A stretch of DNA of 42,529 nt, taken from a virus. Taxonomy: Duplodnaviria; Heunggongvirae; Uroviricota; Caudoviricetes. The stretch lies in IMG/VR virus record IMGVR_UViG_2718218227_000014, one strand, 5' to 3'. The position numbers were made by a program. Below, piece by piece: positions 30,001 to 33,000 of this stretch. Positions within the stretch are counted from its first letter, which is position 1; each line of letters begins with the position of its first letter.

Positions 30001-33000
30001 TCCTACGAATAGCCAACTTGCAACTTAAAATATTATTTATGCAGCCAATTAAATTCTGGTCCTTACAATATCAACCTGAAGATTCTTATCTTGTGCTGAT
30101 TGATAAATGACAAACCTTTTACTACCTGCATTGAAAGAAGTAGACAAAACCAGACAATTATCATAACGAGCAAGAACATAATACCAACCATCATTATAAT
30201 TAATCATTTCATATTCTTTCTTAAACTGTGGTTTGTAATATCCTGTCAGAAATGAAAAAAGCCAGAAATATGCCACAAAAGCAATCATCACAATCTCAAA
30301 AAAATGTTTTTTTATAAATGGCTTATCATAGAAGCATGATACCGATAAAAATCGCCCATAAGATCTTATCGAAATTGTAACCGCCAGCGCAATCGCTGCT
30401 GACAGTAGCAAAAGAGGTACCTGAATCTTCTGTCTCAATATAGAAAACTCAATAATTGCCGGCACAAACAATAATTCCACAGCAAAATAAAGGCGAAATA
30501 CATTTAGCTCTTGCATAGAATGTTTTCTTTTCACTGCGAAAAAGAATACAACACCAATACCCCAACCGATAAGAAATATAGCAATGACGATAACTGCAAA
30601 AAATAAACTTCTGGCAACATCATCAACACCTGCACCTACAATCCACCATGGGAAGCCGTAGTAAAAAGAAGTACCCCATCCATAGAAATAAGCACTCCCC
30701 CATCCAAGGCATCCCATGTAGGCAATAAAAAGTGAAGAACTCCTGAGCAGCGCACCATCCTTCATAACCACCCCAATACAAGATGATAACATTGGCTTAC
30801 AACTCATAACAAAAGCAATTCAATGCCGTCAAGAGGTTACAGGCTAAAAAAACTCTATTACATAGCAGCCAGCATGTTTACCGTACAAGTACAACTCAGG
30901 GCATAAAAAAACCCACTCGGCAGCGGGTTTATACATTTTTTACAACATACCAAATTTGCATGAAGTATATGGCTTTTAATCCAGTTTTGCAATATTTTGC
31001 TGTAAAAATGCTGCCTTTTGTTTTGAACGTGTTCTCGTCACAAGCAATAAAGCATCACTATCAAGCTGTAGAAAAATGTGCTTCATTGCAACCCAGCGTT
31101 CAGTAAATGTCTCGGACCAGTTTTTTGTTGTCACTCCCACCAATGATGCCAGTGTCTGGTATTCATAGGCCTCACGCCCTGCAAGTTCGCTCTTCACATC
31201 CTGTGCAGCCAGCCAGATTAACGTCTTCAGGCGATCCTGAACCGCCCCGGGTTTCCTGGAGAGTGTTTTATCTGTGAACTCAGGCTGCCAGATCATCGTT
31301 TCCGATGGAAGCATAATAAGCTTTTTCTGCTTCTGCCGGAGGAGTATGGCCCAGCCTTCCCAGCAATCGTCGATTGTTATACCAGTCCACCCACGTTAGT
31401 GTGGCCAGTTCCACTTCTGCACGGTTTTTCCAGCTCTTACGGTGTATTACCTCCGCTTTGTAAAGACCATTGATGCTCTCAGCCATCGCGTTGTCATACG
31501 AGTCGCCTGTACTCCCTGTTGATGCCAGTAATCCGGCTTCTTTTAGTCGCTCCGTATAGGCCAGTGACACATACTGAGAGCCTTTATCGCTGTGATGGAT
31601 GGTGCCAGACGGACGACGGGCCCACAACGCCTGCTCCAGCGCATCCAGCACGAATGTCGTTTCCATAGACGATGAGACCCGCCACCCCACGATGTATCCG
31701 GCAAACACATCAATGATAAACGCCACATAGACGAAGCCCTGCCATGTGCTGACGTAAGTAAAATCAGCCACCCACAGCTGGTCAGGTCGTTCTGCCACGA
31801 ACTGACGGTTTACGCGGTCGCCTGCGGCAACGGCTTTCCGGCTGATGGTCGTACGGACCTTTTTACCCCGGAGAACACCGGCAAGTCCCATAACCGCCAT
31901 GAGACGTGCCACTGTACATCTGGCCACCCTGATTCCTTCCCGTAACAACTGACGCCAGACTTTACGCACACCGTACACCTGATGATTTTCATCGTATACG
32001 CGCTGTATCTCTCTCTTCAGCCAGTCGTCGTGCTGCGCACGGGCACTGCGTTTATCCGGATGATGTCGCTGTTGCTGACAATGGTAATACGTTGACGGGG
32101 CAATATGCAGTTCGCTGCATACCGGTCCGACCCCGTACTGCTCACGCAGCTTATCCAGCAGTGGCATCATTTTTTCCAGAGGCGGTCGAACTCCGCCTTC
32201 GCAAAATAAGCGGAAGCCTGGCGAAGGATATCGTTACTGCGGCGCAGTTCACGATTTTCACGTTCCAGCTCTTTCAGACGCTGACGTTCAGCGCTGGTGA
32301 GCCCACCATCACCGCCCCCGGTATCCCGCTCATGCTGGCGAACCCAGACACGCAGAGTCTCCGGCGTACAGCCAATCTTTGGGGCAATGGAACAAATTGC
32401 CGCCCACTGTGAGTCATATTCATCCTGACTTTCCAGAACCATACGAATCGCCCGCTGACGGACTTCGGGGGAAAAACGAGTATTTTTAGTCATCCTGTTT
32501 ACCTCTTTCTCAGGGAGTTTAGTCTCCAGGATTTCCGGGGCGGTTCAATCCAGTGTCTTACCTGCAATTTTTCTGTTACTTAACAAATCTTTAAACTCGC
32601 TCCATGCCCATTGCGTTATGGTGACCTGATGCCCCCATCGAACGCTTTCGCTGTAACACCAAAGCAACCATGCTTTCTGATGTTCATCGAGAGACAAAAC
32701 CGCGCGGCGCCATGAAGAGGTTGAGAATTCAACCGGGCTGACCAAAGCAATGGATGAACCTTTTGCGTACGACTGCTTACCGGAAGTCGGCGTATTATCC
32801 AGCGTAATCATCTTGCCAGTTACCACATCCAGAATGCGCGGCTTCTTTCGTTTGTATGTACCAGTATCAAATTGTGCATGCTCCTGCCAGGCTTCGAGCT
32901 GGCCTTTCGTTGCTCCGTTCAAGTCAGCAGTAGCTGCCATAAGTTGCTCACGAACATACTGTAAATATTGGGTATTCATGCAGTAAATCCTTTCTATATT

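Follow-up and report, generated by a model that had tools for sequence, protein, structure and literature searches.

An IS629 element within a Q-type antiterminator gene

The window analyzed here, a stretch of 42,529 nucleotides from the Caudoviricetes record IMGVR_UViG_2718218227_000014 of IMG/VR, is base-for-base identical to positions 4153748-4196276 of the Escherichia coli O157 644-PT8 genome (NZ_CP015831.1), and contains a lambdoid prophage that adjoins ybhC and carries nleB2, nleC, and nleH1-1. Within this prophage, a gene for a Q antiterminator is interrupted by a complete copy of the insertion sequence (IS) IS629, of which IS1203 is an isoform. The features of the interrupted gene, in window coordinates, are as follows:

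32548..32979, minus strand: 5' part of Q, residues 1-144; aligned to positions 1-139 of 220 in the PF06323 profile (E=4e-58)
32548..32551: target-site duplication ATCC on the N-terminal side of Q, directly abutting the element
31238..32547, minus strand: complete IS629/IS1203 element
32493..32167, minus strand: transposase orfA, 108 residues
32170..31280, minus strand: transposase orfB, 296 residues
31234..31237: target-site duplication ATCC on the C-terminal side of Q, directly abutting the element
30976..31237, minus strand: 3' part of Q, residue 144 (duplicated) to residue 229 and stop codon; aligned to positions 142-216 of 220 in the PF06323 profile (E=7e-29)

The element is a member of the IS3 family, exactly 1310 bp long, with a transposase in the same orientation as Q. 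It opens with TGAACCGCCCCGG and closes with CCGGGGCGGTTCA, with TG...CA ends and imperfect terminal inverted repeats in which 22 of the first 25 positions are complementary between the two ends. The two transposase frames overlap by four bases (32167-32170), and are joined in RefSeq into one coding sequence (CDS; 31280..32493, minus strand) with a programmed -1 frameshift and a pseudoknot feature, under the product name “IS3-like element IS1203 family transposase”. The name IS629/IS1203 rests on this label and on an identity of at least 99% to elements so labelled in thousands of E. coli records. Two further copies split a tail-fibre gene (4942..6251) and a tape-measure gene (14177..15486), and all three are mutually identical over the entire 1310 bp, with duplications of CAC, TAT, and ATCC at the tail-fibre, tape-measure, and Q copies, respectively. 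The ATCC duplication falls within the 3-4 bp published for IS629 in O157, where this element is a major source of diversity (PMC3271280). The copy in Q thus resembles the known IS629/IS1203 polymorphisms of O157:H7 prophages in its 1310-bp element, its 3-4 bp duplication, and its prophage target, and differs from them only in its site.

To reconstruct the gene, the element was deleted along with 3, 4, or 5 flanking bases, and the minus strand was translated, starting with the ATG at position 32979. A long product was obtained only on deleting 4 bases, a protein of 229 residues ending at a TAA stop codon at 30978..30976 (a 690-bp gene), while a 3- or 5-base deletion gave products of just 164 or 145 residues. 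The restored 690 bp displayed 0 mismatches to the uninterrupted allele of O157:H7 TR01 (WP_001097238.1, “bacteriophage antitermination protein Q”), and many other O157:H7 genomes carry the same locus without the IS629 element. Given this mismatch-free empty allele and the restoration by exactly 4 bp, the two therefore represent a true pair of filled and empty sites instead of a chance match between reading frames. An earlier note on this DNA, made from the sequence alone, had placed an IS629 copy at 31238-32547 and proposed that the flanking fragments join in frame across a 4-bp ATCC duplication into a protein of about 230 residues. Its coordinates proved exact and its element complete, and the proposed join holds for the 4-bp removal alone.

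The two halves match separate portions of a single profile, PF06323. The stop after codon 144 comes from the end of the element (TGA at 32547..32545, read as CTG GAT TGA), and the N-terminal product should therefore comprise Q residues 1-144 precisely, without any appended foreign residues. Both halves already stand in RefSeq as pseudogenes, the 5' part as “bacteriophage antitermination protein Q, missing C-terminus” and the 3' part as “missing N-terminus”, so that the interrupted gene and the IS element are both annotated in the public genome record. A mechanically called open reading frame of 112 residues (31314..30976, minus strand) starts at an ATG inside the end of IS629 and runs through 26 IS-derived codons, in frame, into Q residues 144-229.

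The restored protein matched Pfam PF06323 (Phage_antiter_Q) over its full length with a score of 306.8 bits (cut-off 25; E=1e-91), with residues 4-219 aligned to profile positions 1-216 of 220, and also matched PHROG 304 (“anti-termination protein Q-like”; E=2e-108). PF06323 corresponds to the Q82 family (PMC9388147). Lambdoid Q proteins form three unrelated families (PMC9388147; PMC7171158), and Q82 is the one still without a solved structure (PMC9388147). In line with this last statement, a sequence search of the PDB with the restored protein returned no relative (best E-values of 0.12 and 0.4, to unrelated proteins), and an NCBIfam search assigned it to no family. A translated search of phage records identified the Q antiterminator of phage 82 (X92588.1) at 88.6% identity over all 229 residues. 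The phage 82 protein has the same length, and the phage 82 order ylcG-Q-promoter/terminator-lysis genes matches the locus described here, the X92588.1 record itself stopping at the Q stop codon; the gene in the window differs by 26 substitutions and by being split by IS629. The match to phage 434 is complete, with 100% identity at the protein level and 0 mismatches in 690 bases of DNA, and the identical gene is annotated there as “Q82-like transcriptional activator/anti-terminator”. Because phage 434 is viable and its Q identical, the intact allele very probably encodes an active Q antiterminator. The restored gene also occupies the expected place, on the late-transcription strand, flanked by the nin/ylcG region on one side and the lysis genes on the other. 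The assignment to Q, which had initially been made mainly from position and size, is thus borne out by the PF06323, PHROG 304, phage 82, and phage 434 matches, and the profile search of the reconstructed protein against Q families returned PF06323 over the full length and not a different family. An impression of a helix-turn-helix in the C-terminal part found no support, as a Pfam search of the C-terminal fragment at a relaxed threshold returned PF06323 alone and no separate DNA-binding family.

We then used junction-specific searches across 5426 complete E. coli genomes to evaluate how widespread these insertions are. The Q junction was detected in two genomes, 644-PT8 and 180-PT54, while about 618 records contained the uninterrupted Q allele at an identity of at least 99%. 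The tail-fibre junction was found in the same two genomes (one extra two-piece match is not the same junction), and the tape-measure junction in 13, so that the tape-measure insertion is probably older than the one in Q. Eight hits that had seemed to carry the Q insertion as well were removed by this search, each consisting of three BLAST pieces strung together across 7.1 kb, and the IS lying elsewhere. Isolates 644-PT8 and 180-PT54 originate from two linked outbreaks at one restaurant and are a handful of core single-nucleotide polymorphisms apart (PMC5320650). The main text of that report is silent on insertion sequences, transposases, antitermination, and Sp3, and its full text on IS629 (PMC5320650). 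The restriction of the junction to two sister isolates therefore indicates a recent, lineage-private insertion, and the junction might be used to mark the clone of the 2012 UK restaurant outbreak (644-PT8/180-PT54).

These genomes contain many identical IS copies, and the assembly of 644-PT8 was reported to be difficult, requiring both MinION reads and optical mapping (PMC5320650), conditions under which an IS copy might be misplaced in a long-read assembly of a repeat-rich genome. Such an artefact would nevertheless have to reproduce the same junction in the separately assembled 180-PT54. The element is moreover complete, and the 4 bp present once in the empty site are cleanly duplicated around it, as transposition, but not mis-joining, would leave them. 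We thus consider the chance that the insertion is an assembly artefact to be practically negligible.

Candidate late promoter region and a second Q82-type gene

In a functional phage, the late promoter pR' is followed closely by a pause at which Q loads onto RNA polymerase, and the loaded Q then allows read-through of a terminator located about 50 nt downstream, and thereby transcription of the lysis and morphogenesis genes. In phage 82, the pause at which Q82 engages the polymerase is sigma-dependent and lies near +25. Candidate counterparts of these elements lie directly downstream of the interrupted gene:

30964..30992, minus strand: candidate pR', with a -35 element TTGCAA (30992..30987), a 17-bp spacer, and a -10 element TATACT (30969..30964)
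30944..30949, minus strand: candidate sigma-dependent pause element, a -10-like TATGTT at about +9..+14 of the predicted transcript
about 30902..30930, minus strand: intrinsic terminator (tR'-like), 46-74 bp 3' of the Q stop codon

The terminator comprises a 9-bp stem (30930..30909) and a 4-nt loop followed by a U-run, and the 63-nt stretch around it has a folding energy of -15.9 kcal/mol (z = -2.9 compared to shuffled sequences). A terminator is marked at the same site in the phage 434 record, and the one suggested in the earlier note near 30904..30930 is thus real and located on the minus strand. The candidate pR' overlaps the Q stop codon, matches the consensus at 9 of 12 positions, and is the sole such site between Q and the terminator, in a region where promoter-like sites are no more frequent than in shuffled sequence. 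If this candidate is correct, transcription would start near 30957, the hairpin would begin at about +28, and the terminated RNA would be about 55 nt long, and the geometry of the putative promoter and pause element would be compatible with Q82 pausing near +25. On the plus strand, TTGCAATATTTTGC at 30987..31000 fits the CII-box consensus (ttgynnnnnnttgy) and overlaps the -35 element of the candidate pR' on the opposite strand. The IS element lies about 245 bp upstream of the candidate promoter and leaves both promoter and terminator untouched.

The interrupted gene is not the only Q82-type gene in these genomes. Each Q half has three places of near-identity in 644-PT8 and two in 180-PT54, among which is an intact paralogue, WP_001097228.1, encoded at 3458523..3459212 in 644-PT8 and, as the same protein, at 3205132..3205821 in 180-PT54. 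The paralogue shares 98.3% identity with phage 82 Q and 87.3% with the interrupted Q, and belongs to an icd-adjacent prophage with the order rusA-ylcG-Q-holin. That prophage carries emrE and bor, is devoid of cI and cro, and has a truncated O gene adjoining xis. A 200-kb inverted repeat has been reported for the 644-PT8 genome (PMC5320650), and the third place of near-identity may lie within it.

Similarity between the two loci extends 33 bp past the stop codon, with 52 of 58 positions matching from the end of Q, and then ends abruptly. This stretch spans the -35 element, the -10 element (TATATT in the paralogue), and the -10-like hexamer (TATTTT in the paralogue), the pattern anticipated for a module in which Q moves together with its loading site. 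Beyond it the leaders differ, the one here being shorter: its terminator begins about 28 nt past the predicted start, while the first clear hairpin and T-run of the paralogue, as judged by eye, are further downstream. With promoter-proximal regions this similar, and an intact 82-type protein encoded in both genomes, the paralogue of the icd-adjacent prophage might antiterminate in trans at the late promoter of the ybhC-adjacent prophage, in which case late transcription would not be blocked by the insertion. Against this, each Q protein is known to act specifically at its own promoter-proximal site, and the short region contains six differences. The Q gene of the icd-adjacent prophage, moreover, has no obvious inducible promoter, and may be silent given the absence of cI and cro and the truncated O. 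Complementation in trans thus seems to us unlikely, even if it retains a sizeable minority chance. O157 genomes in any case contain two diverged Q82-family alleles, one 434-type and one 82-type, that are 87% identical and have near-identical promoter-proximal regions. As the Q82 family is still without a solved structure (PMC9388147), this pair could be useful for mapping the determinants of Q specificity.

Predicted effect of the insertion in a decayed prophage

Under our proposed scenario, IS629 (isoform IS1203) would have transposed into codons 143/144 of Q while duplicating the target ATCC, leaving an N-terminal stump of 144 residues and a C-terminal third that has no promoter. Since the stump lacks about one third of the conserved domain, we infer that Q function is lost, and the interrupted copy is almost certainly dead. 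With promoter and terminator intact and Q lost, transcripts from pR' should not extend past the terminator, barring the action of another Q in trans. A block of late-gene expression in cis, including the downstream membrane-protein gene and lysis genes as proposed in the earlier note, is therefore plausible and a reasonable reading of the locus, but appears overstated in context, because Q is no longer wired to induction, the structural operon is broken at three other places, and an intact paralogue is present.

The extent of this decay is visible across the prophage. Just 29 bp separate the ninE start (36249, minus strand) from a bet gene truncated at its 5' end (36279, plus strand), and it follows that gam, N, pL, cI, pR, cro, cII, O, and P are gone, and that Q is therefore no longer driven by an inducible early promoter. 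Besides the tape-measure and tail-fibre insertions, the portal gene is annotated as two CDSs (22881..23216 and 23338..24462, minus strand), a further defect of the late operon. Phage 434 differs from this prophage on both counts, being viable with its early region present and its Q uninterrupted, while here the early region is deleted and Q interrupted.

We take the ybhC-adjacent prophage to be Sp3 of strain Sakai and CP-933K of strain EDL933. Sp3 lacks repressor and replication functions, and does not circularize, replicate, or get packaged (PMC2669165). The prophage studied here resembles it in its missing repressor and replication functions and in its damaged recombination and portal genes, while its integrase is annotated as full-length and that of Sp3 is listed as disrupted (PMC2669165). 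Compared to Sp3, the insertions in Q, the tail-fibre gene, and the tape-measure gene belong to the 644-PT8 lineage or sub-lineage. IS insertions have also been described elsewhere in Sakai, namely in the nu1 gene of Sp4 and upstream of the lysis genes of Sp5 (PMC2669165).

Taken together, these observations make it highly likely that IS629 split the Q82-type Q gene of the ybhC-adjacent prophage as a late step in its decay, probably with no practical effect. The insertion in Q would have struck a prophage already past rescue, whose early control and replication region had been lost, and the consequences of the insertion would then be nil, or at most a slight added safety against expression of the still-intact lysis genes. 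The insertion is ordinary prophage decay in which each component is of a known kind; it is another documented example of the erosion of the defective O157:H7 prophage pool by IS629, and matters very little beyond that.

Nothing contradicts the structural side of this interpretation. Several points nonetheless weigh against the interpretation as a whole, starting with its functional side, which we deduce from sequence. A single-sequence structure model of the C-terminal 86 residues had a predicted local distance difference test score (pLDDT) of 44.9, which makes it unusable for naming the lost domain. The phage 434 record marks a CII box and the -35 element of an antisense promoter, paQ, at the bases of the candidate pR', on the other strand. 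Finally, the equation with Sp3 is based on the ybhC position, the effector cargo, and the missing early region, and not on a direct alignment to Sakai.

A selective benefit of the insertion also has to be considered, as silencing Q in a repressorless prophage could shut off a lethal lysis cassette, or shift the expression of cargo located further down the same strand, i.e., the membrane protein, a DUF3927 protein, and the Nle effectors. The downstream holin, lysozyme, and Rz genes are indeed annotated as intact, the prophage has no repressor, and the Q allele, being identical to that of a viable phage, was probably active. On the other hand, there is no early promoter left to drive Q, and the insertion is confined to a single outbreak lineage (2 of 5426 genomes) compared to about 618 records with the intact allele, a distribution that argues against an intact Q being costly in general. 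Neutral hits are also to be expected from the high activity of IS629 in O157, given that each query matched 20 to 28 places in 644-PT8 and 180-PT54. We therefore regard an adaptive insertion as improbable.

The fragments themselves might conceivably retain some activity, with the 112-residue product or the 144-residue stump binding the Q loading site or RNA polymerase, and interfering with the 82-type Q of the icd-adjacent prophage. Expression of the 112-residue hybrid would require read-through from the transposase or an outward-directed IS promoter. If true, this would represent a case of cross-talk between prophages, and we consider it a very remote prospect.

Neighbouring genes and the phage 434-type mosaic

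On the minus strand, the genes surrounding Q are arranged in the order ninE-ninF-ninG-ninI, then ylcG-Q-terminator-membrane protein-DUF3927-holin-lysozyme RrrD-Rz-type protein, followed by the terminase and structural genes. The neighbours of Q include the following:

32994..33116, minus strand: small gene of the ylcG family (RefSeq), directly 5' of Q, as in phages 434 and 82
30049..30792, minus strand: putative membrane protein of 247 residues, the first gene past the terminator, also found after Q in phage 434
28007..29183, minus strand: lysis cassette (class II holin, lysozyme RrrD, and Rz-type protein, all intact in RefSeq)

The same mosaic is present in phage 434 (OL657226.1), where ninI is followed by a lambda-type Q remnant, lpxR on the opposite strand, ylcG, the Q82-like Q, and the terminator, and then, as in the window, by a 744-bp membrane-protein gene and a DUF3927/TciB gene. 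In the window, the remnant consists of 24 N-terminal codons of another antiterminator gene (34557..34628, minus strand) located directly after the ninI phosphatase gene, and the matching remnant is called lambda-Q-like in the phage 434 record. The lpxR lipid A deacylase gene (33454..34413, plus strand; PF09982, E=7e-40) lies between this remnant and ylcG. Given the identical mosaic in phage 434, an earlier Q gene seems to have given way to an lpxR-ylcG-Q82 module.

The 247-residue membrane protein had no Pfam match above threshold and was assigned to no family. A promoter-like sequence 3' of the terminator (30783..30812, minus strand), with TTGTTA, an 18-bp spacer, and an extended -10 element TG-TATCAT, overlaps the annotated start of its gene, and may allow this gene to be expressed independently of Q. 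At the far end of the prophage, past the tail-fibre genes, the type III effector genes nleH1-1, nleC, and nleB2 occupy positions 1..3742 (minus strand) on the strand of the late operon.

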